Positions 7,911-40,728 of a stretch of DNA of 64,000 nt are shown here, one piece after another. Each line of letters begins with the position of its first letter. The first letter of the stretch is position 1. Below the pieces are notes generated by a model. It saw nothing but the letters and a program-made list of their open reading frames with translations, had not been told where the DNA came from and ran no database searches. Both the position numbers and the translations under genes were made by a program. This DNA is from Heteronotia binoei (lineage: Eukaryota), in the NCBI RefSeq assembly GCF_032191835.1, contig NC_083226.1, positions 72,230,001-72,294,000 of the forward strand, read 5' to 3'.

Positions 7911-9332
7911 GGAAGTTTTCAAAGGAAGATTTCTTGCCTGGCTCTGAGGTGGTTCAGTCCAGTACCATGTGATCTTGCTCATTGCATAGCTTTTCCCTGA
8001 GCCCTAATTCATGATTCAGCTAGAAGAAGCATTGAAATACCATGGTGGAGGACCACACAGACAGTTTCCATTCTAGACCAAAATTTCCACATGAATGGCC
8101 AATTATGAAAATATCCAGTTTTATGAAAGCCCCCACAAAAGCACTGAAAGATCACATAAACCTTTTCTCTGTACAGTTAGCATTGGTCATATGGAAGGTT
8201 CAATTTACACTAGAAATTATCTATGTTATAGAGGAGGGAAGCTAGTGCTGTCCACTGCTATGCTATTTCAGTGTCATCCATAACTACATATCCATCACTA
8301 TATTACAAATAAGGGTTCACTGTTGCTGTCTGGTGCACCAGAAAAGAAATAACTAGAAGAGATATACATCACCAGTTGCTCTAGCAATCCCCAGAAATCT
8401 ATGAGTTTTTAGAGGATTACTATAGCCCTGATGATGCAGGATATCATGCAATTATTTAACCAGAAGTGATCTTGTGGTATCACATGATAGCACACAATGC
8501 TCAGCCCCTTTCCAGAAACAGCCAGAGGCTGCCAGCTGGCAAATCTACTTGCTGGGCAATGAATCCTTGAGAGTAGGCCTCATAACATTCACACACAATT
8601 TTTTTGTTTGATTTTTCAAATTGGTCATATAGCATAGGGAATGCTTAATTCAGAAAGTGCTAGTATGAAACGGATATAACGAGCAAAAGCAGCAGCAATT
8701 TTGCAGAGACTAATCACTAAAATTGCTGAAGTTTTCTGCAGGACTTTCATGTATGTGAACTGCTTGACTGTGTTAAAAGAATATGATACACCACAAAAAA
8801 GGGGGGAGGGGGAATTAGGCTACAGTCTTGATGCTGTAGCACAGGAACTAATCCAGGTGGTGCCAAGAAGAGCAGCCAAGGTAGCAACAAACTGCAAAGG
8901 GGATTTTCTTCAATACATATAAAATGTGCCATCAGGCCCAAGAGAGATTATTACCAGACCTGGAGCTTAGTCCCCTGGCTTTTCAATGTTACTTGAGATT
9001 GACCTCATTTAGTTTCTTCATTGTCTGAAAAGGCTTGTGCACTGAAAGGGAGTTCACATGTTAGGAAAGAAAAACATGTTTTTGAGCTTACTCTACTACC
9101 TGAAAATGTTAGATCTGGTCAAGAAGGGGAGTGTAATGCAATATTTCACTTGGATTCTCACATTAACAGTTTTATTAGTAATGAGTACAACTATTGTATG
9201 TCTGCATTTGAATCAACTACCACATCAGCTACTACAGAATGAAAGATTACCTGTACCAAGTAATGATTTCACAAATAGTGTTCAAGGAAGCTGCTTGCAA
9301 TTTGTGATCAAACTGTAATTTGAATACTGGTT

Positions 9333-9617
9333 GGTAGTAGATTAGGGTACCCTATCATCATCAAGCTGCATTCCAAAGTGACAGCTGCCCCGCCCACACA
9401 TGTGCGCGTACACACAAAAATGAACGTCATATGTTTCTCATGGGGGAGTGATGCAACAGTCCCCGAGGAGGCGGCTAGGGATCTGCCCCCACCAGGAATG
9501 CCTGCTTTTTCCTAAGGGGAAAAGGAGGAGGAGCAACTGGTGTAGCTGGCTTCATATTGTTTGAGGAAAAGCGTGTTTTGCAACACATACGTTATTTAGA
9601 AAAATGTGGAGATGCAA
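9333..9617 (+). repeat. Maverick left terminal inverted repeat (~285 bp)
   Basis: Aligns by eye with the reverse complement of 21040-21323, roughly 85-90% identical. Confidence 0.93.
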
Positions 9618-9901
9618 CAGTTTTCAAAAACAGACACATTGCTTTAGGACCCCCTCAAAGTCAATAGTTTACAGGTGGGAAGTGCAGGCACCAGAAATGT
9701 CGTTGTCCAATATTTCTGAAATGTTGCCGGCCATCCCTGGTTGTCACAGGGCGTGTCCCCTGCAACATTTAAACACACATGAGTGTCGGTGGTGCTTTCC
9801 CATGGAACTCTTTAAAATAGGGGAGACCCCCCCCCCACTCCATGGCATGCATTTGTTGCTTTTGGTTTCCCGGCTCTGTTGAACCATCATTTTATAAAGA
9901 A

Positions 9902-11516
9902 ATGAATGCTGTGGAGGCTGACAGGGTTCTGGCTTTGGAACAGGCTGTTCATGATGATATGAACACAGTGGAGACCGATGGGGGGGAAGCCGATGCTGGT
10001 GAGGAACCTGTTTATGAGGAGATGATGCATCCTTCACCCAAAAGCAATGGCAAGGAGTCTGGACATGATGAGGGAAAAGATGAAGCAGAGGATGAGGAAA
10101 AAGAGGAATGGGCGCAGTGTAATCAGAATTGGAAAGAGGATGTAAGTAGCACAAAGGAAACAAAGATGTTGTTGATGGGGGGCCGGACAGAAAATATTTA
10201 GAATTGTGTTTTTTCTTTTGCAGATGGAGGATGAAGGACTGTATTGGAGACTGATTGATCGAATTCTGGAATTGGCGCATAGTAGAGTGAGAACAAACTG
10301 TTGTAAATTCTGTACTACGATTACATATTGTCAAGAGAGTAGTTGTGTGAAAAATGCGACACACAAGAAGACTGGACAGGATGCGGAAGAGGAGGTGGAG
10401 GAAGAAGAAGAGAAAGAAGAAGAAAGTATAGTGTGTGCCGAATATTACCTAGAGAAGGTAAGTAGTGGGGAAACGTGAGAGGGATCCAGGGTGGTGTGGG
10501 GGACAGAATAAACATAGCTGTTTTTCTCTTGAAGAACAAATATGACGATGTGGAGTGGGAACAGTTTATACAAATTGTGGAAGTTGCACATGAGAAAGTG
10601 AATCCTTCATGTTATGGTTATTGTGAAGAAATAGCATGGTATCAAGAACACAGCTGGGTGAGAAAGAAAATGAAACGCCCACAACCTCCCTGCGTGCGAG
10701 ATTTATATCCGGGTGTAAGTTTTTTTATTTTAAAAGGGGGGGGGATGCGGATGTCTAGAAGGGAAATAGAAAGACTAAGACACTTTTCTTTCCTGACAAG
10801 GTGGGGAAAACTTGCCCGTATTCGGAGGTGGCGGATGTCGTCCCTGTGAAGCCAGAACCAAGTTGCTGCTGGGAATGCATGACCGTATATAACATGATTG
10901 TATATAAAGTTCAACCTGTAAAGAAGGATGATGAGGAAGATTCCCTAGCAGATGCTGAGCACGGTACCGGCAGTGATTCTGGAGCGGACATGGAGGATAC
11001 CTCTGGAGATTCTGGAACAGATACGGTGCCTGAAGCCATGGAAAAGGTGAGGGAACCCCCGACTTATGAAGCGCAAACACATGTGTTTCCAACGGATGCT
11101 GATCCAGCCAAGGATGGAGAAGAAGAAGACAACTGCCCATGCATTGAGGCTTTATTCCCCGATGTAAGTGTAATAAAACTGCACCAACTGTGTGAATGTA
11201 ACAAAGCAATATTTGAACTAAAAATGTGTTTTCTTCTTTGAACACAGGTGTGGGACAGACCCATTGATTTTGCACTACTGGCCAGATGCATTAGCGAGGA
11301 GATAAACCCAGGCTGTTGCTACCACTGTGGACTGGTCACCCTGTTTCAAAAAGAGGGATACGGTGCCCAAAGTGCGTCTGTAGATGTTCCAAAGTTTACA
11401 GTGTTCGAAGTAAGGGGGCAGACCTGTGTAAATTTCTGCAAAGGAAAGCCATGGAGCGTGCTGAGAAGCAGAAACAACTCGGAGAAAAAGATGAGAATCA
11501 GAACGAGTCAGAGTGA
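9902..11516 (+). CDS. Spliced Maverick accessory gene, acidic and Cys-rich, unknown function (at least 5 exons)
   Basis: Exons 9902(or 9842)-10141, 10224-10457, 10535-10714, 10801-11163, 11248-. Introns 10142-10223, 10458-10534, 10715-10800 and 11164-11247 all begin GTAAGT, end in a pyrimidine tract plus AG, and are phase 0, keeping the ORFs in frame. The start codon and 3' end are uncertain. Confidence 0.78.
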
Positions 11517-11718
11517 AGATCCAGTTTTTCTGTATATATGCAGCCTAATAAAAAAAAAAATACCTCCATTGTGGCAAAAGAGAGCAAAGTGTCATGACGC
11601 GCCACGGGGATGTGTTAAAAGGGATTTATTATAATCCGCGGGAGGTTGGTAGTTTTGGGGGTATTGAACTGCTATTTCAGGCAACATCTAAGAGGGGGTA
11701 TAAGGTGAGCAGAAATGA

Positions 11719-12109
11719 ACAGGGAAAACTAGATTTGTCGGTTCGAGCGTTATACACTTAATCATGGGTGACGAATTAGCGCTGCTGCTGGGGACTCCCC
11801 CTAACACACCGTTCAAAAACATTCAACACGCAAGGATATTACCAAAGGGTTTAATTCTCTGTACCTATATACCGATATCATAGAACACCAGCTGGTAGGG
11901 ACACAGCCGTGCCCCTTCTGCGCTGTGTTCCGATAAGAGGGAAAGCTCACGATTTTGTCACAGTCATCTATGATGAGCCCCACTACGTCCCCATCAACAA
12001 ACAGCATATCAAAACGATCTGCATAGAAATAAAGATGGATCAGAATCAACCCGTGTCATTCCGTTACGGTAAGGTCATCGTAAGGTTGCACTTACGACCG
12101 CGGGAAAAA
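11719..12109 (+). pseudogene. Minor capsid (penton-like) protein, C-terminal half only
   Basis: Frameshifted TGKTRF...MGDELALLLG / GFNSLYLYTDIIEHQLVG / PLLRCVPI...YVPINKQHIKTICIEIK...LHLRP, which I recognise as the C-terminal motifs of Polinton minor capsids. No N-terminal half is visible upstream. Confidence 0.8.
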
Positions 12110-12574
12110 ATGGTGATTGTGAAAGATTATGGGGACCCAGCGCTGTTTAGGGGCTATTACCGTTCACTGGCTGATTACGCTCTCCCTCGATTTCATGGTG
12201 CACCCGTTATGTATGGGTCAGGAGTTGGAGGGATTTTTCAGAGGCTTTTCCGAATGGCTGTACCGCTTTTTAAAAAAGGGACAGACATTGTCAAGCCACA
12301 CTTGAAAACTGCAGCTCGCAATATTGCTCAAGATGTTGTGGGCCATGTGACATGTCACGTTATGAATAAACTTGAACCCCAGGAGGGATCGGGCTTTATG
12401 TATCTAAAAAGAAGGGGCGGACTTAAAAGAAAATGGTCTATTACATGTAGGGGGCCCCCAGGACCTGTTAAAAGAAGCTGTGGGGGCCCCAAGAAGCAGA
12501 AGGCCCTGAGGAAGAGGGGAGGAAAGAGGAAGAAGAAAAGGACTCCTCACGGGGGACTCAAAGACGTTTTATAA
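12110..12574 (+). CDS. Basic Maverick core protein (PW/pX-like; name uncertain)
   Basis: MVIVKDYGDP...PVMYGSGVGGIFQRLFRMAVPLFKK...QEGSG and a Lys/Arg-rich tail. Lies between mCP and MCP. Confidence 0.75.
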   Translation: MVIVKDYGDPALFRGYYRSLADYALPRFHGAPVMYGSGVGGIFQRLFRMAVPLFKKGTDIVKPHLKTAARNIAQDVVGHVTCHVMNKLEPQEGSGFMYLKRRGGLKRKWSITCRGPPGPVKRSCGGPKKQKALRKRGGKRKKKRTPHGGLKDVL

Positions 12575-12581
12575 GCGGGCC

Positions 12582-13900
12582 ATGGCATTCATCCACTGCG
12601 GCTCGGAAGAGTGTGTGAAGTCGGAGCTCAATCTGTTCCAAATAGCCCCGACACAAACTTGCATCGAGAAAAGCTTGTATATCAAAGTCCTATCCCTATC
12701 AGCCCTTACAGGATCTCTGCCTCTAGAGTTCTACATAGCTGGAAATGGGGAAGATTACATCAATTTAAACAATATACTCCTCCACGTGAAATGCAAAATT
12801 ACTCGAGAAGATGGCACAGACCTCCCTGCTGATGCTAGAGTGGCACTGGTGAACTACCCTATAGCATCCACATTCAGTCAGCTGGATGTGACCGTTGGAG
12901 ATTGGCTGATCAGCCAGAGCAATAATTGCTACCCCAATAGGGCAATGATTGAAACTCTGCTCAATTACAGCAGGGAAACCCTAGGCACACAATTTTCAGC
13001 AGGTGGTTTTTATAAGGATATGGCTGGCCAGCACAAATCCACCATCCTGACAAACCCCGTCAACAAGGGGTTTGCCAAGAGTGCAGAACTAACGGCTGAG
13101 AGCAGGGTGATAGACCTTTTAGGGCATCTCCACATGGACCTATTTTTTCAAGAAAAACTGCTACTAGAGGGAGTGGATGTGAAAATCAAACTAAACCACA
13201 GCAGGGACACCTTCTGCTTGATGAGCGGTACGGGAGACGGGACACGTTTTAAGCTCCAGTTGGATTCAGTCTATCTCTTTGTGAAAAAAGTGAGGGTGTC
13301 CCCAAGTGTCCGACTGGCCCATGATGAAGCACTGATGACCTCCACAGCAAAATACCCTGTGGACCGTGTCAGCATGGAAGTGTTCAATATCTCAGCAGGA
13401 GCCCGTGTAAGCAACCAAGACAACTTGTTTTTGGGACAGCTTCCCAAAATGGTGGTCATGGCTCTGGTGGACAATGACACTTTCAGCGGCAGCTTCACCA
13501 AAAATCCTTTCCACTTTAAAGATTACAACATTAACTTTGCAGCCCTATATGTGGACGCGGAGCAGATCCCCCCCCAAAACCCTTCCAGCCCGACTTTGCC
13601 ATGGGGAACAACGTGAGAGACTACATGAGTTTGGTGCAAACGGCGGGGAAGAATCTTCAGGATAGACCGCTCCTAATAGATCATGATGAGTATTGGAACG
13701 GGTACACTCTGTTTGCCTTTGACCTCTCTCCCTATCAGGAATGTGCAGACCATTACTCCCTGATAAAAATGGGGAACCTGAGAGCTGAAATACGCTTTGC
13801 AGACGCACTCCCCCAAATGGTGAATTTGATCGTGTACGGGGTGTTTGACAACATCATCGAGATCAACCAAAGCCGCAACGTGCTCTTTGACTATATGTAA
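12582..13900 (+). pseudogene. Major capsid protein (double jelly-roll, Polinton/adintovirus type), one frameshift
   Basis: MAFIHCGSEECVKSELNLFQIAPTQTCIEKS...GHLHMDLFFQEKLLL...NPFHFKDY. Frameshift in the C8 run at 13568-13575, then GYTLFAFDLSP...GNLRAEIRFA...FDNIIEINQSRNVLFDYM*. Confidence 0.92.
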
Positions 13901-13901
13901 C

Positions 13902-14420
13902 ACGGATACTGTCCAGCTAACACGCGTCTTACTAGACAATCCTCACACCCGTAAAAGCTTCTTGAACCTCTTCCCCAGCGATCAGCTACCTGTTGAAAGG
14001 CTGTCCCAGAGGCCCATCTCTTCAGTGATGAAATCCCCACTACCTCCCAGGAGAATACTGGCTGGCGATTTATCTTGTTGACCCCGGGACCTCCGAGTTT
14101 TTTGACTCATTCGGCAACCCACCCTCTACCCCCTCTTTCCGCCTGCCATTATGTACTTTTTAAACAAGAATTCTAACGAGGTGCATTTCCAAAGGAATCG
14201 TCTCCAAGGACAACATCTAACACATGCGGACAGCACTGCCTGTTTTTTCTCCACCACCGCTGCAAAGGTGCCCCCTTTCACAAGATTATGAAGATGAATT
14301 CTCCCACCCCCAAACTGAATGACAGGATGGTCATGAGTTTTGCAAAAAGCACCCTGAAGAATTCAAGGACTTTACAAAACATGTACACTCGCACCCAAAC
14401 CTGTTTCTTGTGGTCCCCCT
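13902..14420 (+). pseudogene. Adenain-like cysteine protease
   Basis: (ACG)DTVQL...PGEYWLAIYL...EFFDSFG...LQG..SNTCGQHCLFFL across frameshifts. The catalytic His position reads TAC (14056-14058); Cys TGC is at 14225-14227. Confidence 0.88.
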
Positions 14421-14524
14421 AATAAAAATCTGTTGGAATATTAAAATGGAGTAAGCGTGTGTCTTTTGTCCATAAAATACTCAGAACCGAAAGATTTGCG
14501 TTAAAAAAAATTATTATTCTATAG

Positions 14525-15485
14525 TCAACCACGCCGTCTTCTTTTTTTTAAGAAGAAATAAGGAGGGGTGAATGTTTTTTGTTTTTTAGAAGAAATTACG
14601 GGTGTGCGCTTTAAAGCCGGAGACTGTGGGCTTTTCAAGTCTTCCAGCATTTTTCTAGCAGCCAGGATGCCCACCACTGAAGAGGGGACATATGAACATA
14701 TGAACATATGAAGCTGCCTTATACTGAATCAGACCTTTGGTCCATTAAAGTCAGTGTTGTCTTCTCAGACTGGCAGCGGCTCTCCAGGGTCTCAAGCTGA
14801 GGTTTTTCACACCTATTTGCCTGGACCCTTTTTTGGAGATGCCAGGGATTGAACCTGGGACCTTCTGCTTCCCAAGCAGATGCTCTACCACTGAGCCACC
14901 GTCCCTCCCCCCACCGTCCCTCCCCACCGTCCCGACGTTGAGTTTGGCCAGAGCCCTCATAAACATGTCCATGCCTTTAGGTGAGGGGGCAGAAGAGGGA
15001 GGGCGAGTCTGAGTAACAGCCTTGACCAAGTCAAGCAGATGGCTTCCAGCAACAGAGGCCCCTCTGTAAAGAAAAGTTCCCCTTTCATCCCAAGAGGCAA
15101 TTTCTTTGTTTTGATCCATTTTCTTTAGCAGCACACGGGCATTGTTCCTGTTTCGATGTGGTAGATTCTCTATCACCTCTTCAAAAACCGTTGCATTTTT
15201 TTTCTCAACGTCGAGTGTTAACTCAGTTTGCGGGAGATACAGATCCAGCTTAGTTTTCTCTTCCTCACCCATTCTGACGTGCGTGAGATATTTCTGAAGA
15301 AGAGAAGCATAGACCTTGGCCTTCTGGTATTCTGATAAATCCCCCCTCTCTAGAACCCTTTTCATCTCCTTGTCTAGACAGTGCACAACGGCGTGCCTGA
15401 TGGGTTCACTCTCAGAGGGCCGCTGAATAGTTAGACAATCTAACTGCTGGCTAGGGACCAGGTACATCTTCTCCGCAAGATCCAT
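14525..15485 (-). pseudogene. Conserved Maverick core ORF (PZ-like; name uncertain), interrupted by a SINE
   Basis: MDLAEKMYLVPSQQL...LDKEMKRVLER...WDERGTFLYRG...SHLLDLVK...LAKLNV, resuming as PSSVVG after the SINE at 14688-14933. Confidence 0.8.
14688..14933 (-). mobile_element. tRNA-derived SINE (Squam3-like) inserted in the Maverick gene
   Basis: Minus strand GGTGGCTCAGTGGTAGAGC (A box) and GGTTCAATCCC (B box), 3' tail (TATGTTCA)n. It splits codons ...LNV|PSS.... Confidence 0.88.
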
Positions 15486-15814
15486 CAGGAGGGTGTTAAA
15501 AAGCTGGTGAGCAAGGGCAGAACAAAAGCCAGCAAGGACCCTATAAAGCCCCCCTGCTGTCTCACCAGTTTCTTCTTCTTTGTAAGGAGAGTCTTAGAGC
15601 TGCTCAGGGTTTTAATCAGGGACCGTTTTTTTCGCAGGACAGTCTTCTGCCGCTGTGACAGGGGGATGACACCTTTTAGCGTGTTTAAAGCTATCTCCCC
15701 GATAGCCTTTATTAAATCGTTTGGAGCAGCGCACAGAATAGCATTCCTTAGATGAGGGGGTGATTTGGAGATGAGTATCAGGAGTCTTCCATTTCTTTTT
15801 AAGCATGCAGACAT
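15485..15814 (-). CDS. Small basic Maverick core protein (PM-like; name uncertain), intact 109 aa
   Basis: MSACLKRNGRLLILISKS...DLIKAIGEIALNTLKGVIPLS...RQQGGFIGSLLAFVLPLLTSFL. Lies directly downstream of the ATPase. Confidence 0.78.
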   Translation of the reverse strand: MSACLKRNGRLLILISKSPPHLRNAILCAAPNDLIKAIGEIALNTLKGVIPLSQRQKTVLRKKRSLIKTLSSSKTLLTKKKKLVRQQGGFIGSLLAFVLPLLTSFLTPS

Positions 15815-15865
15815 GCTTCCTCCATGCCAAGCTGACTCTCCTTAAAAGCCTCGCAGAGTTGAGCG

Positions 15866-16343
15866 TCAGCGCCTTTTAATTCCCCCGACTTTTTTTTTAA
15901 CAACATAGCAGACCAGGAGGTCTGGGGGGAACATCCCTGTATGAAGTCTGTAAGATTCTGGCGTGGTCACGTTTAAATCCACCATCAGGTAGCCGAAGGG
16001 CTTTCCCGTGGCATCTTCATAAGCCTCCATAAAAAAGGCCGCGTTCCCAGGGTACATCTGTCTGGCTAGAGTCGCTATTTGTAATTTATCTCTGGTTTTT
16101 TTTAACTAACACCATGTACTTGGTTTTCAGATTGATGGTTCTGCTGCTCTTCTCCTTGCAGAATAGATTCTGCACGATGTAAATAATACTCAGATTTATG
16201 TGATGAACGTATTTGGTGAAAGCATTTTCGATTTCGCCGCTATCGGAGGCACACGCCATCAGATCATCCACAATGACGAGGTTTATTTTATTAAGAGGTA
16301 GCAATTCATCATCATTAAAATTGGAGGGCAAATCCTCTACAAA
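15866..16343 (-). pseudogene. A32/FtsK-like genome-packaging ATPase, C-terminal part
   Basis: FVEDLP...LVIVDDLM (Walker B)...FTKYVHHINLSIIYIVQNLF...RTINL, frameshift in an A run near 16100, then LARQMYPG...DATGKPFGYLMVDL. The N-terminus (Walker A) is replaced by CR1. Confidence 0.9.
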
Positions 16344-18290
16344 CTAATAATACCCAGTATGGCGTTGGCCTTTTTTATTGCAATCGCACACTGTCTTGAC
16401 ATTATCAGTGAGTTATCTACCACGACCCCAAGATCTCTCTCTTGGTCAGTCTCTGGCAGTTCACACCCCATCAACTTGTATTTGCAGCTGGGATTCTTGG
16501 CCCCAATGTGCATTACTTTGCACTTGGCCACATTGAACATCTTCTGCCACGTTGACGCCCACTCACCCAGCCTCAACAGATCCCTTTGGAGTTCCTCACA
16601 ATCCTCTCTGGTTCTTACCACCCTGAACAATTTAGTGTCATCCGCAAACTTGGCCACTTCACTGCTTACTCTCAACTCCAAATCATTTGTGAACAAGTTA
16701 AAGAGCATGGGTCCCAGTACTGAGCCCTGCGGCACTCCACTGCTTACCGTCCTCCACTGCGAAGACTGCCCATTTATACTCACTCTCTGCTTCCTATTAA
16801 TTAGCCAGTTTTTGATCCACAAGAGGACCTGTCCTTTTACTCCATGACTCTCGAGCTTACTAAGGGGCCTTTGATGAGGAACTTTATCAAAAGCTTTTTG
16901 GAAGTCAAGGTAAACAATATCTATCGGGTCTCCTTTGTCCACATGTTTGTTCACCCCCTCAAAGAAATGTAACAGGTTAGTGAGGCAAGATCTTCCCTTG
17001 CAGAACCCATGCTGAGTCTTCCTCAATAACTCGTGTTCATCAATGTGCCCACTCATTCTGTCCTTGATAATGGTTTCTACCAACTTTCCCGGTATTGAAG
17101 TCAGACTGACTGGCCTGTAGTTACCCGGATCTCCTCTGGAACCCTTTTTAAAGATGGGGGTGACATTTGCTACCTTCCAGTCCTCAGGAACGGAGGCAGA
17201 TATCAATGAAAGATTACATATTTTTGTCAAAAGATCCACAAGTTCATCTTTGAGTTCTTTCAGAACTCTTGGGTGTATGCCATCTGGACCTTGTGACTTA
17301 TTAGTTTTTAATTCGTCCATCAGTTGTAAGACCTCCTCTGTTTTCACCTCAATTTGGCTCAGGTCTTTCAATACCCCTTCCAATAGAAGTGGTTCCGGAG
17401 CAGGCAAACACTTCTCATCTTCCACAGTGAAGACGGAGGCAAAAAATTCATTTAGCTTCTCAGCCATTTCCTTATCCTCCTTCAGTAATCCTTTGACCCC
17501 CAAGCTTCCCCAAGGGTTTTGACTGTATGTACCTTTCCTTTCAGTTTCCTCCTCACATGCCTCCTCATCTCAGTGTATTTACCCCTTTTAAAGTTAAACG
17601 TGGTTGTGGGGTCTTTTTGGACAACTCCCTATTTATACAAACGGTGCAATCAATAACATTATGGTCACTGCTCCCAAGCGGCGCAATCACTTTTACATCT
17701 CTCACCAAGTCTTGGGCATTACTTAGGACCAAATCCAGGATCGCCCCACCCCTGGTAGGTTCTGAGACCATCTGCTCCATAGCACATTCATTGAGAGCAT
17801 CAAGAAACTCAATCTCTTTCTCTCGACCAGAACACATATTGACCCAATCAATCTGCGGGTAGTTAAAATCACCTATTACGACACAGTTTTTACGTTTAGC
17901 CACTATCTTTAAGTTTTCCATCATATTATAATCGTCCTCTCTCTTTTGATTTGGTGGGCGATAACAAACTCCCATAGTTAAATTTCCTTTTGGGCCCTCT
18001 ATTCCAACCCAAAGCATTTCTAAAAGTGAATCTAATTCTCTGACCTCAGTCTTACTGGACCGTATATCCTCTCTGACGTACAGAGCCACCCCACCTCCAA
18101 CCCTTCCCTCCCTATCCTTTCAATATAGCTTATATCCAGGAATCACCGTGTCCCACTGATTCTCCTCATTCCACCAAGTTTCTGAAATTCCCACAATGTC
18201 TATGTTTTCTCCCAACACTAAACATTCCAATTCACCAATTTTACTTTGAACACTTCTAGCATTTGCATACAAACATCTATAATTTCCCTG
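16344..18290 (-). pseudogene. CR1 ORF2 (AP endonuclease + reverse transcriptase)
   Basis: CLYANARS, ISETWW, GDFNYP, SSDHN; RT motifs PGNYRPVSLTS, YLDFQKAFDKV, GVPQGSVLGP, FADDTKL. Stop at ~18120 and a deletion near 17505. Confidence 0.92.
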
Positions 18291-18481
18291 GCGAGCTAGG
18301 CCCACCACCTTCCCCCTGCCACCTCGAGACTCTGGCAGACAGTCCATATTGTTTGTCGCCTTTACAGTGGACAACTCTGGTCTGTTACCCGGTAGAAAAA
18401 TAGCAGCTAACCCTTCATCTCTTTGAGTCGAGTCCTCCCAAACCAGAGACATTTCATCTCCTGTCGGCTTTCCCCCAAGAT

Positions 18482-19381
18482 TTAGTTTAAAAACTGCTTT
18501 GCCACCTTTTTGATTTTAAGCGCCAGCAGCCTGGTTCCATCCGGGGACAAGTGGAGACTGTCTCTTTTGTACAGCTCCCGCTTGTTCCAGAAAGCATCCC
18601 TGTGCCTAACAAACTTAAACCCTTCCTCCTTACACCATCGTCTCATCCACACATTGAGACTTCTAATTTGTGCCTGTCTCTCCTGCCCTGCACGTGGAAC
18701 AGGTAGCACTTCCGAGAAGGCTACCTTGGAGGTCCTGGCCTTAAGTCTCCCGCCTAGCAGCCTAAATTTTTCCTCCAGGACCTCACGACTGCATTTCCCC
18801 ACATCGTTGGTGCCAACATGCACCACGACCACAGGCTCCTCCCCAGCACTGTCTATCAGTCCATCTACTACACGCGTAATGTCCGCTACCTTTGCACCAG
18901 GCAGGCAAGTCACCATACGGTCAGTACGCGGTTTCGCCACCCAGCTGTCTACTTGCCTAAGGATCGAATCACCAACTACCAAAAACCCCCCTCTCCCCCT
19001 GCTCAGGGATGGTTCCTTGGCGCGAAAGGATTCCCGCTCACCAACCGAAGAAGAGGTCCCTTCTGAGGGCGCATTCCCCTTGTCCTCAGCACGGTGCCCT
19101 GTTCCCTCTCGCTCTCTGGCAGCAACGGGGCTGCTACGTTCAGAGCGGGGCTCATCTAATATGCCCCCGAGAGTCTTCCCCAAGTGCCTAACTGACCGTC
19201 TCTACTTCTCCAGGGCAGTCACCTCGGCCTCAAGGGTACGAACTCGTTCCCTGAGGACCAGGAGCTCCTTGCATCGAGCACACACCCAAGACTTCTGTCC
19301 TTTGGGCAGATAGTCATACATGTGACACTCAGTGCAAAACACTGGAAAGCCCCCAACCCCCTGCTGGCATTCTATCTTCAT
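18482..19381 (-). pseudogene. CR1 ORF1 (Cys-rich finger + SGNH/GDSL esterase)
   Basis: FCTECHMY...VCARCKE, one premature stop near 19205, then VVGDSIL, HVGTNDV, DSLHLS. Confidence 0.9.
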
Positions 19382-19919
19382 GATATATATATATTAAAAT
19401 ATACAGTCCTCTTTAAATGCTGTTTGTTTAAGTGGCTCCCCTTCTGGAGGGTCAACTTACCTTACCTCAACTTACCTTATTGGGAACTTACCTTATTTAG
19501 AGAACAAGGAAATCAGGGATCTGGGTTCCTGGCCCTTAGAGAGCCCCTAGGTGAAGAGCCACAGGCCAAGAGCCCTTTAGCTCTCGCCAAAGGCTCGCGC
19601 CTTTGGGAAGGCGCAGCTTAAAATGCAAAGAGGGTGGAGCAGAGGCACTCCTCAGCAATCAGCAGCAATCACTCTTAATCTCTTTCACCCTTAGGCCAGT
19701 CAACCAAACAAAGAGCAGTCAACCAAACAAAGAGCAGTTCCCCAGCTATCACACCTTAGAATTTTAGGCAGCCCCACAAACCTTAGAATGAAGTCCTTAG
19801 AATGAAGTCCTTCAAAACTCAGAAATTCTCAGCAATTTCTCCAGCTGTCTCAGCTATCAGAGCTGCTCTGCTCCTCTCAGACCTCTGTGAGACCTCACTT
19901 TTTAGCAGTTTTAACACTG

Positions 19920-20420
19920 TCCTTTATATTTATAAAATCCAAATTTCGCCTCTTCCTTCTCTTTTCTTCCAAGCTTTCTATACTTTCTTTTCCCACCTTT
20001 TAATTTTGTCCCTTTAAGTTATAAATAGTTCCGGAATGAAAAAATAATCTTCTGTACCTTTTCTTCCTAATATCCAAGTTTCCACTGGTCTTTCAAAGCT
20101 TTAGATGTTTAGCAATGTCCAAGAAGGTTAGGATTCTGACGAGCTTATGTCAAATAAATGACTCTGGGCACTTCTGCAGACGATGACTATGCAACTTCCC
20201 CTGAGACCCCTCAAAGCCTCAAAGAAGTCCCCCTCCGGGGCTCCCTTTAAGCCAAGGTAAATCTCCTTAAAGTTTTCTGTGCATGTCTTGGACTATTCTC
20301 TAACTGAGAAAAGTAAGCAGTAGGCATTAATTTGCCTTCCACTACCCCGAACAGAAGTTCCAGCCTGCTCCCGTTATGAGAGACAGCTTAGCTCGGCATT
20401 TTCCTCCCCCGGAAGTCGCT
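19920..20420 (-). mobile_element. Possible 5' fragment of an L1-like LINE
   Basis: Minus strand begins GACTTCCGGGGGAGGAAAATGCCG at the CR1b break, reminiscent of L1 5' ends. A weak IESLEEKRRKRRNL stretch follows. Not firmly assigned. Confidence 0.3.
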
Positions 20421-20897
20421 ATAATACCCTTTTTTGAGGTGCGGTGACCAGAACTGTACACAGTATTCCAAATGAGTCCGCACCATCGATTTATACAAGG
20501 GGGCATTATCATACTGGCTGCTTTGTTTTCAGTCCCCTTCCTAATAATTCCCAGCGTGGCGTTGGCCTTTTCTATTGCAATCGCACACTGTCTTGACATT
20601 TTTTTCAGTGAGTTATCTACCACAACCCCAAGATCTCTCTCTTGGTCAGTCTCTACAGGTTCACACCCCCATCAACTTGTATTTGTAGCAGGGATTCTTA
20701 GCCCCGATGTGCATTATTTTGCATTTGGCCATCTGCCACATTGTCGCTCGACTCACCCAGCCTCAACAGACCCCTTTGGAGTGCCTCACAATTCTTTCTG
20801 GTTCTCACCACCCTGAACAATTTAGTGTCATCTGCAAACTTGGCCACTTTGCTGCTTACTCCCGACCCCGGATCATTAATGAACAAGTTAAAGAGCA
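20421..20897 (-). mobile_element. Second CR1 RT fragment (truncated at both ends)
   Basis: LFNLFIND, FADDTKLFRVV, SRQCAIAIEKANATLGIIRKG. Confidence 0.88.
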
Positions 20898-21039
20898 CGA
20901 GTTGTATCGACACGCAACCTGATGCAACCTGATGTTAAAGGGACGTGTTACACGTATAAGGTTAGCCGTGCTCAGTTTTAAAGACATCATTTTATCCATT
21001 GGGCATGTCTCCTCTCCAAACTATGGCCGCTTAGAACCA

Positions 21040-21323
21040 TTGCATCTCCACAATTCTCTAAATAACGTCTGTGTTGCAAAACACACTTTCCCCCAAACAA
21101 TATGAAGCCTGCTACACCAGTGGCTGATCCTCCTTTCCCCCTTAGGAAACAGCCGGCATTCCTTGGGGGACGGATCCCTAGCCGCCCCCTCGGTGGACTG
21201 TAGCATCACTCCCCCATAAGGAAACTTACGACGTTCATTTTTGTGTGTGCACGCATGTGTGGGCGGAGCAGCTGTCACTTTGGAATGCGGCTTGATGATG
21301 ATAGGGTACCCTAATCTACTACT
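21040..21323 (-). repeat. Maverick right terminal inverted repeat
   Basis: Reverse complement starts AGTAGTAGATTAGGG, the typical Maverick AGT-repeat terminus, and is followed by the TSD. Confidence 0.93.
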
Positions 21324-24300
21324 CTGGTTCTTTAAACATAAGAAAAACCTAGTTTACCATATAATTACCATCAGAGCTGATCATTTGAATCTAAGCTTCA
21401 TAATCAAAAGCATTCATTCAGAGAGGACTTCCATTTTGTTCTCGTGAGCATATCAAGATAAGGTACTTTGTCTCTACATGGTTTGGCATTCACAAAGCTG
21501 TTCTGCATAGGTAACGCATGAACTCTACCTGACCAGATGGAAAATAGGAGTAGACTTGCTGCTAGAATTTGAAAAAATAGTCACTGGGGTGGATCCAACT
21601 ATCCTTCAAGTAGCTTTACTCCAGCCTGTGGAGCTTTTCTCCAGCTTGTATAGCTTTCCTTCGGTTTAGGTGGCGTTCCCAAAATGGAACAGCTACTTAA
21701 GTTGGAGGAAGGCTTTTTTGATTGGAGGAAAGCTTCATACCTAAGCCAATAGGAAAAGATGGGTTTAAATATCATAATAAATAAAGACACAAACTCTGCT
21801 CAGTTGAGAGGTAGGATAGGAGTAGGAGCTATCCCATTGGGATAAATATTTCACTAATTTTAAATCCTACATTGAAAATTCTGGTGAGCATACCAAACTG
21901 CCATGCTTTTAATACATCTACCTCAGAGTGAAAAGGTTTGTGGCACATTTTTTTTTAAAAAAAGCATTGTAGGTGGTTAGACAAAAAGGGCAGCATTTGG
22001 GTGATGTCAGCTTCATCTATAACAGCAGGAGGGAGAGCTGGGGGGGGAAAGTCCTCTCACGCATATATGTGTTGCTCACTGCATTGTGACAGTGGGTGAT
22101 GTGAAAGACCTTACCCAGGACTCTGGAGAGCTGCAGTCAGAATAGACAATATTGACCTTGATAGACCAATGGTCTGACTTACTATAAGGCAGTTTCATGT
22201 GTTCATGTAAACCTTTCACAGAATTTCATAGTTAAAAGTGCAAAAACAGATCAGTGGTTATATAGCTTCTAGTCTGCAATCTCATGAATCAGTGTGATGT
22301 CAGGCAAAATATGTATGCAACAGGATAAATGCATATTCAGTTTTAAGATGTCAGAAACCAGAATGCAATGCAACTGCTACAACTGATGAAGCAGTAAATG
22401 ATGAAAGTACATAGGATACTGGGGAAATGTTACTTTGTTCAACTGTTTCAAAACTGATGATGGAAGTATTCCTTAGGTTTATTAGATGTGGACAGCCATA
22501 AGTTCAGGATGGACTGTCCATTAGAATTCTAATTGCACATGAAGAACAGGGATCACAGGAAACTGTCATCTCAACATGCTATTAAAGCCACTAGAATGAG
22601 TATGTGAATGTTTGTGTGGGAAGACCCTTACTGTGCGCCCTCTATTATGTCCTCTGTTATGTCCAAGACCTAATGTATATTTTACTGCTGTGGTGTTCTT
22701 GCTTTCCTGAGTTACCCTGGCAATTTGCCAAAGTCCCAGGCAGTTTCTCATATGAGCAATGTGGTATGTAAAATGGCATCTCAAAGCACTGAATCACAAC
22801 ATTGTCCAGTCTCTCTTATACAGTCCAAGACTCCATAAGTAACTGCAAACCTCACCTCCTGAAACTATTCCAAATTTTCCAAATCACTTTCCTGGTGAAG
22901 CATGAATGAATGACATCTACAGATGGCAAAGTGGAGCACAATTGAAGGAGATGATGCTAAATGAAAAAAGATTAAAGGGGGGAAAAATCATGTGATTTCA
23001 CTTATCTCCTCACAAATAATCTGAAAGCTAGTAAGCACACACAAAAAGTATTTCTTCCAATGCTAACAATTCCATTAGAAGGAAGGATCTTACAGGTTCT
23101 TTCATTTCCTTCCTGAATGCAATATAATGCCTATTATCAACTCTGCTTCTCAGTAAACATACCAATGTGTGGCCTCAACATGGGACCCATTCATTGCTTT
23201 GAATGTGCTGTCAATTATTGCTTAAATATTCAAGACTAGCTCGGCATCCCAACAATCAGCAATGGCATTTTTACTCTACTATTACCTTGCATGTAATCTG
23301 GAGGCTTTAAAAACCTGCTGTTCAAAGACTGCTCAAGTCTGTCAAGAGATTCCTCCACTTTACCCTACCATCTTATTTAGACATGTTGGATTATGCAAAG
23401 AGCCTGAGAACTGTCACACATAGCTGGTTAGATTCTTCTGTTTTGGGCACATGTAAAAGGGGAAATTTAAGAATTGGGAAAAAAATTCTTCCACACGTTC
23501 ACCATAATACTTTTCTTGTACTTTAACCTACACATTTTATGAGTGTTATGAGCCACTGTAAATCTCCAATTCAGTGCTGGAAAGGTGAGAGTATAGAAGT
23601 GCACCATCTTGCTCTCTACACATGTTAAAATATGTTGGTATAGGAACCAAGCTCAAGCCCTGTTCAGAAGTTCATTCTAGGTAAGATTGTAAGAATTATG
23701 GTTATTTCACATGACAGCCTCCTGTTCAATTAGTATTTGTTGTGGTGAATGCATAAAGTCTGAAGAGAATTCAACATCCCCAAGTGCTAAAAGATAAAAG
23801 GCTGAAGCTAGTGGAAATTTATTTTAACATTTGAGGAGGAGCCAAGTGGACATTTTGGGTGAACGTTCTCTGGCTGATGGCCCTCCGACTCACCATTTTT
23901 TCTGGGGTTGGCAGAAGAAACAGCAGGGAGTGGACATGATTTCAGATGGCACTCTAGAAACTATAATATTACCCTATGATAATACCATAAAATTTCTAGA
24001 GCATCAGACAATACACTGATATCACATCTGATTTTCTGCCTAGATACAATGTTTGCAAGTAGTTCAACATCACATATGCCCTGCCCCTGAAGTTCCCAGG
24101 GGTGCCTCTGCTTGAGAACTCAATCTGAGTGGATAATACTACCACTGATAGACCATGAGCTTGATTCAATATAAGGCAATTTCAGGTGTTTATGTATAAG
24201 TAATGGAAGAGTGGTGATATCTGCCAGTTCCTTCTACCATCACAAACTTCTGTTCCTGCTCATGGTATTCCTCTGGGTCTCCTGCCCCCCCCCCCAACAC

Positions 24301-24596: not shown

Positions 24597-24861
24597 TGTA
24601 ATGTACTGAGAACCGAGACGGTTTGAAGGCAACATTCTTTATTGGGGGGTACATTACCAGACAAAAAAGCATGCGGGCCGGGCCCCGCTTATATACATCG
24701 CCTGGACAGCCCCCCTGGTTTGACCAGGCCAATCCTGGTCAGTCCAAACTTCCCGCCACAGGTCTTGGTGGGCGGGGCGACTGGCGAGCTACATCCGGGG
24801 ACCCAGGGGTCGCCTTCTGTAGGGCTCGCGATGCGGTACCATCTTAAGTCAATACATAACA
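24597..24861 (-). repeat. Gypsy 3' LTR (265 bp)
   Basis: TGTAATGTAC...CATAACA, a direct repeat of 29015-29376. Polypurine tract on the minus strand at 24862-24872. Confidence 0.93.
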
Positions 24862-24999
24862 CTCCTCCCCCCTTAGCTCAGGACACATAATCCCTCAAGT
24901 AAGCGGGAGCTGTGAGCACCCGGGTCGACCTCCGGGGGGACCCTTGGGGGGGTTGACCCGGCCACCGGCTCTGTCAGGGGCCCAGCTGCTGTGGCCCCC

Positions 25000-27994
25000 A
25001 CGTGGGGGAACCGCCGGCCTATGGCTGATCATGCCCCCCAGTTCTGCCGGGGCTCTGGCCGTCCTCTTCGTTTTGATGTGGCTCCGCTACCCGCTTGGTC
25101 GGAGCGGGCGGTGGGGCCGTTCATTGGGGAGGTGTGGCGGTGGGCTCCTCTCCGCCCTGCATAGCCTCCGGTTCATCTGGCAGGGTGCGGCGGCGGATTT
25201 GGTTAATGTGCCTCCACAAGATTCGGCCCTCCTCCGTGGCTACGTCGTAGTGACGGGACCCTAGGACACGCAGCACCCATTCCACTACCCACTCGGGGCT
25301 GTTCGCGTAGTTCCTCGCGTACACCGGGTCTCCCGAGAAGAATCCCGTGGCCACTTCCCTAATCTCGGGGGACCCGCGGATGTCCGAGGCCCGGTCGGGG
25401 TGCAGCCTATCGAGTCTCATGATAAGCTTGCATCCCATTAGTAATTCCACCGGGCTTACCCCTGTGACAGGGTTGGGGGTTATCCTGTTGTCAAATAGGA
25501 AGGCGGCTAAATGGTGGTCCCAGTCCCCTTGCACTATGTGACCCAAGGCTTCCTTTGTGGTGCACACCATTTGCTCCGCTTGACCGTTAGTGGCTGGGTG
25601 GAATGGGGCGGACCGTATGTGCCGAATTAAGTACCTCTGTAGGAACTCCTGGAATTCCCTGGAGGTAAAGGCGGTCCCGTTGTCTGAGACGATGGTGTCC
25701 GGGATTCCATGCGTGCTCAGGGCCCTGTGCAGCGCCCCGATTGCCGCCGCCGTGGAGGTGGATGCCACCGGAATGACTTCCAGCCACTTGGTGAATGCGT
25801 CCACCAAGATGAAGAATATTTGACCCTGGAAGGGCCCCGCAAAGTCGATGTGAAGCCTCGACCACGGCTTCCTGTTAGTTTCCCAGCGTTGCGCGGGGGT
25901 GCTGGGTGGTTCGGGTTGGGATTCTTGGCACGCTCTACACTTCCGGACCCAACCCTCTATCTCCTCGTCCATCCCCGGCCACCAGACGTAGCTACGTGCT
26001 AATGCCTTCATCGTAACAATTCCTGGATGAGTTTCATGGAGGGACTCTAGCACTTGCCTCTGTAGCAGGGGGAGCACCACCACCCTGCTGCCCCACAGAA
26101 GACACCCCTTGTGGGCAGCTAGTTCCTCCTTCCACATTGTGTATGCCCTGAACTCCTCGCCCAGTTTTCCCACTGGCCAACCCCTTACCAGCCAGTTGAG
26201 AACCCACGCGAGTATCTTGTCTCGCCCCGTGGCTTTCGCTACCTCTGCTGCGTGTAGAGGCCGCTCCGGGAGCGTTTCTATGAGCATCACATGGTGGGCT
26301 GTGGCTGGGTCAGGGTCCAGGGTGAGCAACGGTAAGCGGCTGAGTGTGTCTGCGTGGCCCATAGCCTTGCCCGGCCGGTGGACCAGGGTGTACGTGTAGG
26401 GATTGAGGGACTGATTCCACCGCAGCACACGCTGTGATAAGATCTGTGGCGTTTGGTGGTCTGGGGCTAAGAGGCCCAGGAGGAGTTTGTGATCTGTGGC
26501 TATGGTGAACCGCCTCCCGTACAAGTAGTTATTAAACTTGTGTACCCCAGCCACAATCGCCAGAGCCTCTTTGTCGATCTGGGCATAATTCCGCTCTGCA
26601 GGGGTCAGGGTCCTCGAGTAGTAGGCCACCGGAACCTCCCTCCCGTCCAGGAGTTGGTGCCCCAGGACGGAGCCCACCCCGTACGGCGATGCGTCACAAG
26701 TGAGGACCACTGGTAGGCTCTCATCAAAATGGTGTAGTACGTCATTGGAGATGAGCAGCCCTTTTACTGCCTGAAACGCAGTGTCCTGTGCCTTCCCCCA
26801 GACCTATGGGGCATTTTTGTCTGGGAGTCTGTGGAGAGGTTCCGCTATGGCGGCTTTGTGGGGCAGAAACTAATGATAAAAGTTTAATAACCCCAAGAAA
26901 ATTTGTAGTTCTGCCTTATTTGTGGGGGTGGGGGCTTCCACAATGGCGGTGGCTTTGTCGGGTGTCGGGTGGATCCCTGCTGCGTCCACCGCAAATCCCA
27001 AGAACTCTACCCTGGGCACCCCCAGGGAGCACTTTTCCCGCTTCACTTTCAGACAGGCCTCTTGGAAGCGGCAAAGTACTTCTCGCAGCCGGTTGCTGAA
27101 TTCCTCTGCATCTGGGGTGGCGATCAAAACGTCGTCAAAGAACAGCTGTACCCCGGGGATCCTTTTGAGGAGAGAATCCATCAGACTCTGGAATACCCCC
27201 AGGGCCACGCTCACCCCAAACTGGAACCTCCGCACCTTGAATGCCCCCCGGTGGGTGACTATGGCTTGTGCCTCAGCCGTGGCGGTGTCCATGGGCAGTT
27301 GCTGGTACGCCTGGGCCAAATCCAGTTTCCCAAAGACCTTGGACCCCGCTAACGCAGCCAGAACATGGCTGATGACTGGAACCGGATAGGGATTGTCCTT
27401 AAGTGCCTTGTTTATGGTGCACTTATAATCCGCACATATGCGCACCTCCCCGTTCGGCTTTACCGGGGTCACTATTGGGGTTTCCCACACGGCATAGGAA
27501 ATTGGTTCCAGCACCCCCCGGGCTGTGAGGCGGTCTAGCTCGGCCTCGATTGTGGGCTTCAAGGCAAACAGGACCCGCCTGGCCTTCAACCTTACGGGCC
27601 GCACATGGGGATCGAGGGGCAAGGATATGGGAGGGCCCTTGTAGCAACCCAGGGCCCCATCAAACACCTCCGGGAACTTCTTACACACCTCTTTGAATTC
27701 CCGCACCCCCAGCTGCTGGACCCCCACGATTTTTATTCCCAGTGGCCGGAACCAAGCTAGTCCCAACAGTGTGCTGAGCTGTCGTTTGACCACCAGTAAG
27801 TCAAGTTTGCCCCTAAACCCATTGTATTCCACCCCCACTGTTGCCCACCCCAGGACTTGAACAGGGTTCTTTTGAAAGTCCCGAAGCACGAAGCCTGCCG
27901 GCCACAGTCTGGGCCGGCCATGTGGGCACATCTTCCTCAAAGATTCCTCCGAGATTATAGAAATGGAGGACCTGAGTCCAGTTCCATCAGGCAA
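25000..27994 (-). pseudogene. Gypsy pol (protease, RT, RNase H, integrase)
   Basis: MELDSG; RICADYK, KLDLAQAYQQL, FFDDVL; LTCDASPYG, EALAIV; LHETHPG...CRAC; HIDFAG/VSDNG/NGQAE. Confidence 0.92.
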
Positions 27995-28909
27995 GGCTTG
28001 CCCTGGATCCTGACGGAGACCTTGACCTTGTGGGGCGTCTCATCGGGCAAGTTCATTACCTGGACGCTGGTTGAGGCTGTCGCGTAGTCTCCGATCAGCT
28101 CCTGGTTTGTTGACTGGCAGTGGCGGGGGGGTCTGGCACGGCAGGCCCTCACGATGTGGCCGATCTTGCCGCAGCTCCTGCAGACCATGTTGCGGTAGGG
28201 GCAGTCTCTTCGCTCGTGGGGGTCGCCACAGCTGGCGCACTTGGTCGAGGGTGGTTTCTCAGTTGCTCGGGGTCGCAGTGTCGCTCGTGGGCCCGTCCCT
28301 GCTTGGCGGCGTAGCTGGAGTGCCTCTTCTTCCTCCGGTCCACCGGAGTCCATCTGTCCCTGGTGGACGGCGTCGGCTCTCGTTTTGGGAAAGGTCCTCG
28401 TGGAGCGCTCGAATGCTACGGCCTCGTTGAAGGCGCTCTGGAGGGTGAGCTCTTCCCTCACGAATAGCTTCTGTTGCAGCCTCTCGTCTCTCAGGCCCCA
28501 TGTGAAACGGTCTGCCAGGGTCTCCTCCAGCTGTCCAAAGCTGCAGTTGCCCGCGATTTGGCGGAGAGCTGCCAGGTAGTCGGCGGCCGTCTCTCCCGCT
28601 TCCTGGTCCCTCTGGTGGAAGAGGAATCGGCGGGCCACACGTGAGGGCTGCGGCAAGAAGTGCCCAGTGAGGAGTCTGACTATCTCCTCATAGGACTTTT
28701 CCGTGATCTTCGTGGGGGCCGAGAGACCCTTGGTGATCTTGAACGTGGCCACTCTGCAGACACTCAGGAGAACGTCCCTCTTTAGGCAGTCTTCAGTTAT
28801 TCTGTTGGCTCGCAGGTAGCACTTTACCCGCTCCGTGTAGGTCTCCCCCTTCCGGATTCGCGGGGTTGAACTCTTCGATATGGCCCATTGTTCCGCTCTG
28901 GTTAGCCAT
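27960..28909 (-). pseudogene. Gypsy gag
   Basis: MANQSGTMGHIEEFNP, then after a frameshift YLRANRIT...ARRFLFHQRDQ...LRDERLQQKL; zinc knuckles CASCGDPHERRDC and CRSCGKIGHIVRAC. Confidence 0.88.
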
Positions 28910-28995
28910 GGTGGCTGTGGCGGTGGTAGCCCGACGGGTTGCCTTCGAAGTCTCTGATGGATCCGCGTAGCCCTATTTAAATTTCCCAGGCTAGG

Positions 28996-29013
28996 ATCCC
29001 ATCCTCGTCGCCA
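28996..29013 (-). promoter_or_regulatory. Primer-binding site complementary to tRNA-Ser(GCT)
   Basis: Plus strand ATCCCATCCTCGTCGCCA equals the 3' 18 nt of vertebrate tRNA-Ser(GCT) as I recall it. It lies 1 nt from the LTR. Confidence 0.82.
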
Positions 29014-29014
29014 C

Positions 29015-29376
29015 TGTAATGTACTGGGAACCGAGACGGTTTGAAGGCAACATTCTTTATTGGGGAGTACATTACCAGACAAAAAAGCATGCGGGCCGGG
29101 CCCCGCTTATATACATCTCCCAGACAGCCCCCCTGGTTTGACCAGGCCAATCCTGGTCAGTCCAAACTTCCTGCCACAGGTCTTGGTGGGCAGGGCGACT
29201 GGTGAGCTACATCCGGGGACCCAGGGGTCACCTTCTGTAGGGCTCGCCATGCGGTACTATCTTTTTTTTTTTTAAACATTCATCATTTATTGAGATTAGT
29301 ATATATAACAAATCCATAGTAATAATAAGTATTTAACAATTAAACTTGCGGTACTATCTTAAGTCAATACATAACA
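29015..29376 (-). repeat. Gypsy 5' LTR containing a short LINE-type insertion
   Basis: About 11 substitutions versus the other LTR by eye count, plus an insert at 29264-29346. Confidence 0.92.
29264..29346 (-). mobile_element. Very short polyadenylated retroposed insert (L1-type 3' stub)
   Basis: Minus strand AATAAA plus poly(A), flanked by a 14-bp TSD TGCGGTACTATCTT (29250-29263, 29347-29360). Confidence 0.85.
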
Positions 29377-32800: not shown

Positions 32801-33141
32801 CAGACAGTTAAATAAAATCATTTTTGAAAATACTAAGTACCACAATGAATTTTCAAGGCACTATGTCAATTGTGCTTAAGCCACAGATACAAAAGTCATC
32901 ACAACTTGAAAAGCTTCAAGTCAGCTCATTCTTAGGTTTGGGTTATCAGATGCTGTACAGCCAGGCACCAGCTCAGTAACTGTAATGCAATTCTTTGAGG
33001 GCAATGTCACACACATTTTTTTTTCCTACACAGATAAAATTTCCAGTAGAAGTAAACATCTGTATCAATAGTGTTGTAGACATAGCATCAATAGTGCACA
33101 GAAATACACTTGCAGTACCAAGTTTACACAACCAAGATGGA

Positions 33142-33335
33142 TTCAAGTGGCTAGTTGTGTTGGTCTGAAGCAATAGAACAAAGTTTGAGTCCAATGGCAC
33201 CTTTAAGACCAGCAAAGTTTAATTCTGGATATAAGCTTTCATGTGCATGCACACTTCATCAGATATGTGCACACAAATGCTTATACCCAGAATTAAACTT
33301 TGCTCGTCTTAATAGTGCCACTAGACTCAAACTTT
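33142..33335. mobile_element. Penelope-like pseudo-LTR fragment with partial inverted copy
   Basis: GGCACCTTTAAGACC...CAGAATTAAACTTTGCT inverted pair; minus strand CTGATGAAG...GAAAGC. Confidence 0.7.
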
Positions 33336-39120: not shown

Positions 39121-39124
39121 AGCT

Positions 39125-40043: not shown

Positions 40044-40109
40044 CTTTGTTTCTGGAGCTGGGGTAGTTATGGTTATATTATAACTTGTCTGTTTCTCTAT
40101 TTAGGTACT

Positions 40110-40660: not shown

Positions 40661-40728
40661 GGGCTGGGGTTGGCTTTGGGCCTTCTGGTGGGTGCTAAGC
40701 CCTAAGTAAAGACTTGGCCTTAAGTTGT

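Follow-up and report, generated by a model that had tools for sequence, protein, structure and literature searches.

We analysed a 64,000-nucleotide window of the Heteronotia binoei genome (assembly GCF_032191835.1, contig NC_083226.1, positions 72,230,001 to 72,294,000; coordinates below are those of the window), in which a Maverick element is located at 9333–21323. The insertion belongs to an element class already known and is itself an unremarkable dead copy, and its left arm carries what is apparently an undescribed family of spliced accessory gene. Exact copies of the hexamer CTGGTT are present at 9327–9332 and 21324–21329 as a 6 bp target site duplication (TSD), as an earlier note made by a model from the sequence had claimed, and the chance of an exact 6-mer at both flanks is about 1/4096. 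The ~285 bp terminal inverted repeats (TIRs) of that note are confirmed by local alignment, with the left (9333–9617, plus strand, 285 nt) and right (21040–21323, minus strand, 284 nt) copies sharing 257 of 280 aligned bases (91.8%) with five small gaps, and differing by 13 transitions and 10 transversions. The right end has the terminal motif ACTACT and the left end GGTAGT, one base off AGTAGT. Vertebrate Mavericks are reported to have an (AGT)2//(ACT)2 end motif and a 6 bp TSD (PMC8097293), and the TIRs with these ends, the TSD, and a gene order collinear with that of a reference locus, L004, together support assignment of the sequence as an endogenous Maverick. The same identity had been proposed in the earlier note, and it agrees with a tree of the capsid protein MCP that puts the window sequence among vertebrate Maverick capsid homologues.

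Because Pfam named just three of 23 window open reading frames (ORFs), all in a CR1-type LINE and none in Maverick genes, natural reference loci were used to identify the core genes; to verify the gene order, 405 ORFs of 36 Maverick loci obtained in a metagenome scan were compared with the window by tblastn. L004 has the canonical layout, with Pfam matches to rve plus a chromodomain, Peptidase_C5 (above cut-off), DNA_pol_B_2, and a sub-threshold Pox_A32; the integrase, protease, polymerase, and ATPase are named in L004 by Pfam, and mCP, pw, MCP, pz, and pm by position only. The L004 ORFs map in order onto the plus strand as the C-terminal part of the minor capsid gene (11718–12115, aligned at 11829–12115, with a frame change and a stop), pw (12107–12574), MCP (12582–13900, annotated as F54H12.2-like, with a frame change between 13559 and 13607), and pieces of an adenain-like protease in several frames (13905–14422, matching L004 and L006 ORFs that carry Peptidase_C5). 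Facing these on the minus strand are pz (14560–15485, interrupted by a SINE and with an approximate low end), pm (15488–15817), and the packaging ATPase (15869–16343, named from L004 and L006 ORFs and the sub-threshold Pox_A32), which has a frame change near 16100. Remnants of both a protease and an A32-type ATPase are thus present, with only reference residues 111–259 left of the latter. Sequence searches of PDB and Pfam with MCP gave no matches, and its designation as a putative double jelly-roll capsid is by position and homology. A probable remnant of the integrase is located at 11594–11717 on the plus strand, the expected position, where only the first 20–30 residues match, at 11606–11683 (E ~1e-3 in a targeted search, to residues 5–30 and 12–30 of two reference integrases), and the rve core and chromodomain are gone. 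With two L004 ORFs covering the polymerase gene pPolB, no match was found in the window at E≤1. The gene order given in the earlier note is confirmed by the reference ORFs, although the integrase remnant was overlooked; the genes of its virion module are recognisable but their integrity was overstated, as most are broken or truncated, the minor capsid and ATPase genes are present as C-terminal parts only, and the replication module is gone.

In the interval from the left TIR to the integrase remnant is the accessory gene, for which alignment to H. binoei proteins gives a five-exon model on the plus strand. Exon 1 (9821–10141) has a frame open from 9821 and contains a cluster of cysteines near 9848, YKEM and YEEM tyrosine motifs, an acidic tract, and the first cysteine of module 1; the RefSeq H. 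binoei model begins at a methionine equivalent to 9902, and the window frame is open upstream of this. It is followed by exon 2 (10224–10457, 78 codons), exon 3 (10535–10714, 60 codons), exon 4 (10801–11163, 121 codons, whose acidic linker contains a DSGxx(S/T) motif), and exon 5 (11248–11516), in which there is a frame change near 11412–11420, such that the accessory gene in the window is no better preserved than its MCP. An AATAAA is present downstream at 11547. The putative introns, assigned by splice pattern and protein alignment, are all in phase 0: intron 1 (10142–10223, 82 nt, GTAAGT...AG, with an in-frame stop), intron 2 (10458–10534, 77 nt, with in-frame stops), intron 3 (10715–10800, 86 nt), and intron 4 (11164–11247, 84 nt, with an in-frame stop).

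Splicing of this gene is suggested both by the signals and by homology. GTAAGT donors at 10142, 10458, 10715, and 11164 are each followed by a pyrimidine tract and an AG 77–86 nt later, and when the 1973 nt left arm was searched for a donor with a pyrimidine-AG after 70–100 nt, using thresholds fixed after the introns had been seen, four patterns were found against a mean of 0.01 in dinucleotide shuffles, none of 2000 of which reached four (four donors alone were reached in 3 of 2000). The same pattern occurs once on the plus strand of the remaining window and once on the whole minus strand. A search with exons 4–5 returned a single protein among 217 candidates, the H. binoei RefSeq protein XP_060099311, which joins at all four junctions such that exons 1–5 correspond to residues 1–70, 71–149, 150–209, 210–326, and 327–415 (P0121 aligns to exons 2–5 over these same residues), and which has near-identical paralogues at five LOC numbers. 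Homology across genera skips exactly over the introns at the protein level, and unspliced ORF calls in relatives begin at or read through the same FPD|VW boundary (P0146, P0147, P0148, P0166). The spliced and uncharacterised accessory arm proposed in the earlier note is thereby borne out, as we found no description of the family in the literature searched, which included few subscription journals and neither Repbase nor Dfam, so that an earlier annotation is possible.

A HMMER search of 1.84 billion representatives gave 14 matches; setting the query aside leaves 13, of which 10 are named proteins of geckos, from Gekko kuhli (records labelled 'UNVERIFIED_CONTAM' by their source), Eublepharis, Paroedura, and Sphaerodactylus. 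In an accessory-profile search all 11 matches, from 5077 candidates, were likewise gecko, and overall relatives were found in five gecko genera with no named match outside geckos. The profile matched none of the 36 metagenome Maverick loci, most of which are short and lack the left arm; seven pattern matches in IMG/VR were not confirmed, and Atlas searches gave no usable match. Linkage of the accessory gene to a Maverick capsid in relatives is suggested by consecutive accessions on one Sphaerodactylus contig (XP_048350042 and XP_048350043) and by matching contig sizes of 16,744 and 7,371. The corresponding ENA record set (P0004, P0147, P0148) includes a capsid ORF as well as accessory-exon ORFs, and its shared longest contig, at 16,744 nt, is near the published mean size of intact vertebrate Mavericks.

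The accessory proteins contain between two and four helical modules, each with the pattern C-x29..33-CCxxC, although one Eublepharis module is degenerate. In the window an intron is always located eight codons past the first cysteine of a module, and ORF calls and models of relatives have the same boundary; this constant phase 0 position implies that modules could be added or skipped in frame. Models in relatives do differ by one whole exon, the difference between P0137 and P0160 being exon 3. Two Sphaerodactylus proteins (P0142 and P0156) have their first part in common but diverge at one shared exon boundary into different last modules, a hint that there may be alternative last exons or a third module. 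AlphaFold, given 28 sequences, predicts (mean pLDDT 63) two modules of three to four helices (pLDDT 73–87) in disordered linkers, and a single-sequence model of P0121 was unusable (pLDDT 42). Fold searches of BFVD and PDB with the module gave nothing significant (best Foldseek E 0.45 and 5.0), and the best VIA Z score for a 45-residue module was 3.2; lack of a significant match to a predicted structure does not make the fold new. The proteins have no Pfam, NCBIfam, or PHROGs match above cut-off, and the profile has no match among PDB sequences. A likeness to the zinc motifs of papillomavirus E6/E7 found no support in Pfam or PDB. Each module has one CCxxC and a distal cysteine, not the paired CxxC metal-binding motifs of adintovirus Oncoids.

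The element belongs to a gecko-specific Maverick lineage and integrated with a 6 bp duplication. The best among 499 MCP matches (from 3132 candidates) are H. binoei proteins up to 89% identical, and in a midpoint-rooted tree of 42 rows (37 matches or cluster members picked for host spread, four metagenome ORFs, and the first MCP frame of the window) the window MCP falls in an 11-row clade with support of 100/99, closest to H. binoei. All named rows of this clade are geckos (Euleptes, Sphaerodactylus, Paroedura, Eublepharis, and H. binoei). Another lineage of gecko Mavericks (P0018, P0026, P0039) is positioned outside this accessory-carrying clade. Within H. binoei, near-identical accessory and capsid gene copies (P0121–P0128) are found on several chromosomes, suggesting recent activity of the family. 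The earlier note was right that the element class is not new; a 2021 supplement lists Maverick fossils from geckos, with two rows for Gekko japonicus and three for Paroedura picta (PMC8097293), and the class was therefore already known in these animals.

The copy in the window is a dead, defective fossil that has decayed in place. The TIR distance of 0.087 corresponds to an age of 14–43 My if rates between 3e-9 and 1e-9 per site per year are assumed, and only ~7.2 kb of the 12.0 kb element lies outside SINE and CR1 blocks, compared with a mean size of 16.9 kb reported for intact vertebrate Mavericks (PMC8097293). A related copy is represented in run X1, which consists of contigs only, at a small share (0.05), may be DNA, and is uninformative on expression or habitat. 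These contigs are ~91% alike to the window, with 8–10% difference over the core genes, and do not cover the left flank at 7933–9176. One contig departs from the window sequence at 11718 and runs on for another 477 letters, consistent with a deletion having occurred in the window copy, and record 7 joins 14686 to 14934, skipping a 247 bp tRNA-type SINE on the minus strand within pz (14687–14933; depth >50,000 in these bins), which indicates that the SINE is a later insertion. PMC7983390 yielded no subfamily assignment for this SINE. What the earlier note called a LINE mosaic is indeed LINE sequence, comprising in detail a 3'-truncated CR1 on the minus strand (16344–19400) with an ORF1 GDSL esterase, endonuclease, and reverse transcriptase (RT), whose 3' end is lost at the ATPase junction, and a second minus-strand CR1 fragment (20429–20897) that is 86% identical to the first over 369 nt. 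The segment between them (19400–20430) matches nothing else in the window and no reference Maverick ORF; a further CR1 fragment on the plus strand at 1–897 is 82–86% identical to both nested pieces. One deletion evidently took the larger part of the integrase together with the beginning of the minor capsid gene, and we propose that a second took pPolB, the first part of the ATPase gene, and the 3' end of the CR1 inserted in the right arm; the SINE and scattered frameshifts have broken further genes. Insertion of CR1 followed by a deletion that also removed pPolB is the simplest reading of the right arm, the absence of pPolB being read as deletion because the neighbouring ATPase gene is also cut.

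We considered what the accessory protein might do from short motifs, counted in nine near-full-length representatives (five fragments were left out) with expectations from shuffles. YEE[MI] is present in six of the nine (0.09 expected) and DSGxx[ST] in seven (0.07 expected). The window has the N-terminal cysteine cluster, and so do 7 of 26 models, which come from three named genera; the window extension matches the extended N-terminus of Gekko P0137 (E 6e-10), and an upstream cysteine pair is aligned in all seven sequences chosen for having the extension. Some Sphaerodactylus models have Met-Gly and basic residues ahead of this pair, and the protein has no evident transmembrane helix. DSGxxS motifs are linked to beta-TrCP, and YxxM motifs bind PI3K. 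A plausible explanation is that the accessory protein is an early, host-facing adaptor, in which the cysteine cluster (plus the basic stretch in Sphaerodactylus) would be acylated and thereby hold the protein at membranes, the E-x-(I/V)-YEEM motifs, of which there are one to three, would be phosphorylated by Src-family kinases and dock SH2 proteins, the DSGxx(S/T) motif would engage or decoy the beta-TrCP ubiquitin ligase, and the Cys4 modules would probably be zinc-stabilised interaction domains. Such a protein would act in the manner of polyomavirus middle T, though the two are unrelated. In hamster polyomavirus middle T, as in Cbp/PAG1, a palmitoylated adaptor, YEEI-type sites are described as ligands for Src-family SH2 domains (PMC10740393, PMC3492796), and DSGxxS is listed for HIV Vpu (PMC5217368). 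Because of the three motifs and the middle T and Cbp parallels, a lipid-anchored signalling adaptor is the function we tentatively favour within a broader class of host-modulating motif scaffolds, at a little under even odds.

Taken together, the explanation we prefer is a decayed gecko-lineage Maverick with a spliced modular gene whose putative function is that of an adaptor, to which we assign a probability of about 0.55. A fuller version, in which a gecko-confined lineage has long carried its own spliced early gene with a new repeat fold, expansion and contraction by symmetric exons, and a lipid-anchored adaptor for Src/SH2 and beta-TrCP, is rather more doubtful. Several observations weigh against the preferred explanation. 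We saw no transcript in spliced form, contigs of X1, the one run located, cross introns 3 and 4 unspliced, and there is no intron-skipping joint among the X1 joints listed; the gene predictions are also not independent of the splice signals that they read. The motif counts come from related sequences and not from independent events, such that they show retention rather than independent origin. Nineteen of 26 annotated family proteins start at a later methionine and lack the cysteine cluster, Eublepharis members have neither the tyrosine motif nor the degron, and myristoylation usually needs Ser/Thr at position 6, which the Met-Gly starts do not have. Finally, the Maverick linkage of the relatives is taken from accession numbers and contig sizes, not read from DNA.

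The unspliced contigs, and the description of intact vertebrate Mavericks as intronless in PMC8097293, are what would be expected if the five exons were separate small ORFs, or chance splice-like sequence, joined by annotation pipelines. This is very unlikely, as no shuffle reproduced the pattern, the four introns are all in phase 0 and interrupt a junction-spanning repeat at one and the same codon, and cross-genus protein homology jumps exactly over them. Less likely still is that the window copy is a still-mobile non-autonomous derivative or that its accessory gene has been domesticated by the host; both ends of the element are kept and accessory exons 1–4 are free of stops, but the TIRs are 8.2% apart, the accessory gene has a frame change as MCP does, the terminal MCP branch from a shallow family node is long (0.12), and a related copy has neither the SINE nor the deletion.

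If the gene is real and spliced, its product could instead be a nuclear Oncoid of the E1A/E7 type, which would use Rb binding and zinc modules to drive the cell cycle or transcription. Adenovirus E1A is also spliced, and the gecko gene adjoins the TIR at the left end, encodes an acidic and cysteine-rich protein, and has an IxCxE-like stretch in exon 2; adintovirus Oncoids are defined by such motifs (PMC8502044). We nevertheless consider this unlikely: LxCxE, which in Oncoids goes with a CK2 site, occurs in one of the nine representatives where 0.94 is expected by chance, the cysteine of the IxCxE-like stretch is the conserved first cysteine of the repeat, Oncoids are typically upstream of PolB and not of the integrase according to the same report, and the N-terminal cysteine cluster and tyrosine motifs point to membranes. 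More improbable again is that the element captured a host gene and carries it as a passenger that does nothing for the element, in the manner of the intron-bearing wasp and krma genes of nematode Mavericks. The position between left TIR and integrase and the presence of introns are as for the nematode cargo (bioRxiv 2022.07.12.499685), and the introns are canonical spliceosomal ones, but no non-gecko homologue was found among the 1.84 billion representatives. Moreover, the gene is multi-copy and has been kept across three gecko families with conserved cysteines and motifs at ~25–60% identity, which implies selection while inside the element.

Several other features are present in the window. 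An LTR retrotransposon with 249 nt LTRs that are 96% identical occupies 24597–29263, with RT, RNase H, and integrase matches on the minus strand, and is probably of Gypsy type. At 37200–41909 an RT-bearing element has split direct repeats (40729–41150 and 41521–41909), a layout that we take to suggest a DIRS/Ngaro-type retroelement, with only RVT_1 confirmed. A long, near-perfect MITE-like foldback is located at 45823–46517 (arms of 158, 38, and 143 nt, 92–95% complementary), with shorter hairpins at 32935–33728, 33175–33340, and 58083–58218, and an assembly gap of 130 N at 63009–63138.

The element resembles the vertebrate Mavericks of Barreat and Katzourakis (2021, PMC8097293) in its 6 bp TSD, AGT-repeat ends, TIRs, two facing modules with matching gene order, and accessory region at the flank. 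It differs in that the gecko lineage has a five-exon accessory gene, whereas genes of intact elements are reported there as intronless, and in that the window copy lacks pPolB and retains only a remnant of the integrase. Nematode Mavericks have intron-bearing cargo at the same position, although the cargo described by Widen et al. (bioRxiv 2022.07.12.499685) consists of enzyme families (protease, kinase) that also occur outside elements; for the gecko gene we detected no catalytic domain and no non-gecko homologue, and its repeats are exon-symmetric. Adintovirus Oncoids (Starrett et al. 2021, PMC8502044) are similarly acidic, cysteine-rich, and defined by short linear motifs, whereas the gecko gene is on the integrase side and spliced, is not enriched in LxCxE, and has tyrosine, degron-like, and cysteine-cluster motifs instead. 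The likeness to middle T and Cbp/PAG1 (PMC10740393, PMC3492796) is a functional analogy only, those proteins being scaffolds tethered at the membrane that offer YEEI-type sites for SH2 docking; we found no similarity to them in sequence or fold, the anchor would be an N-terminal lipid, and the Cys4 repeats have no counterpart.

By itself, the insertion at 9333–21323 is an ordinary decayed fossil. Scans for intronless ORFs overlook spliced genes, which is why the accessory genes of vertebrate Mavericks have gone largely unread; given a conserved spliced accessory gene, the view of vertebrate elements as intronless needs revision. The gene also adds a small, unclassified Cys4 repeat domain, can serve as a marker for one gecko clade, and offers a single-protein test of whether Mavericks interfere with kinase and ubiquitin signalling in the host. 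If the adaptor reading is true, a vertebrate Maverick would have a dedicated modulator of host signalling, a convergent 'middle T', and this would bear on the question of whether vertebrate Mavericks are infectious viruses, as evidence that such a life cycle exists among land vertebrates, with young copies that are nearly identical persisting in H. binoei.

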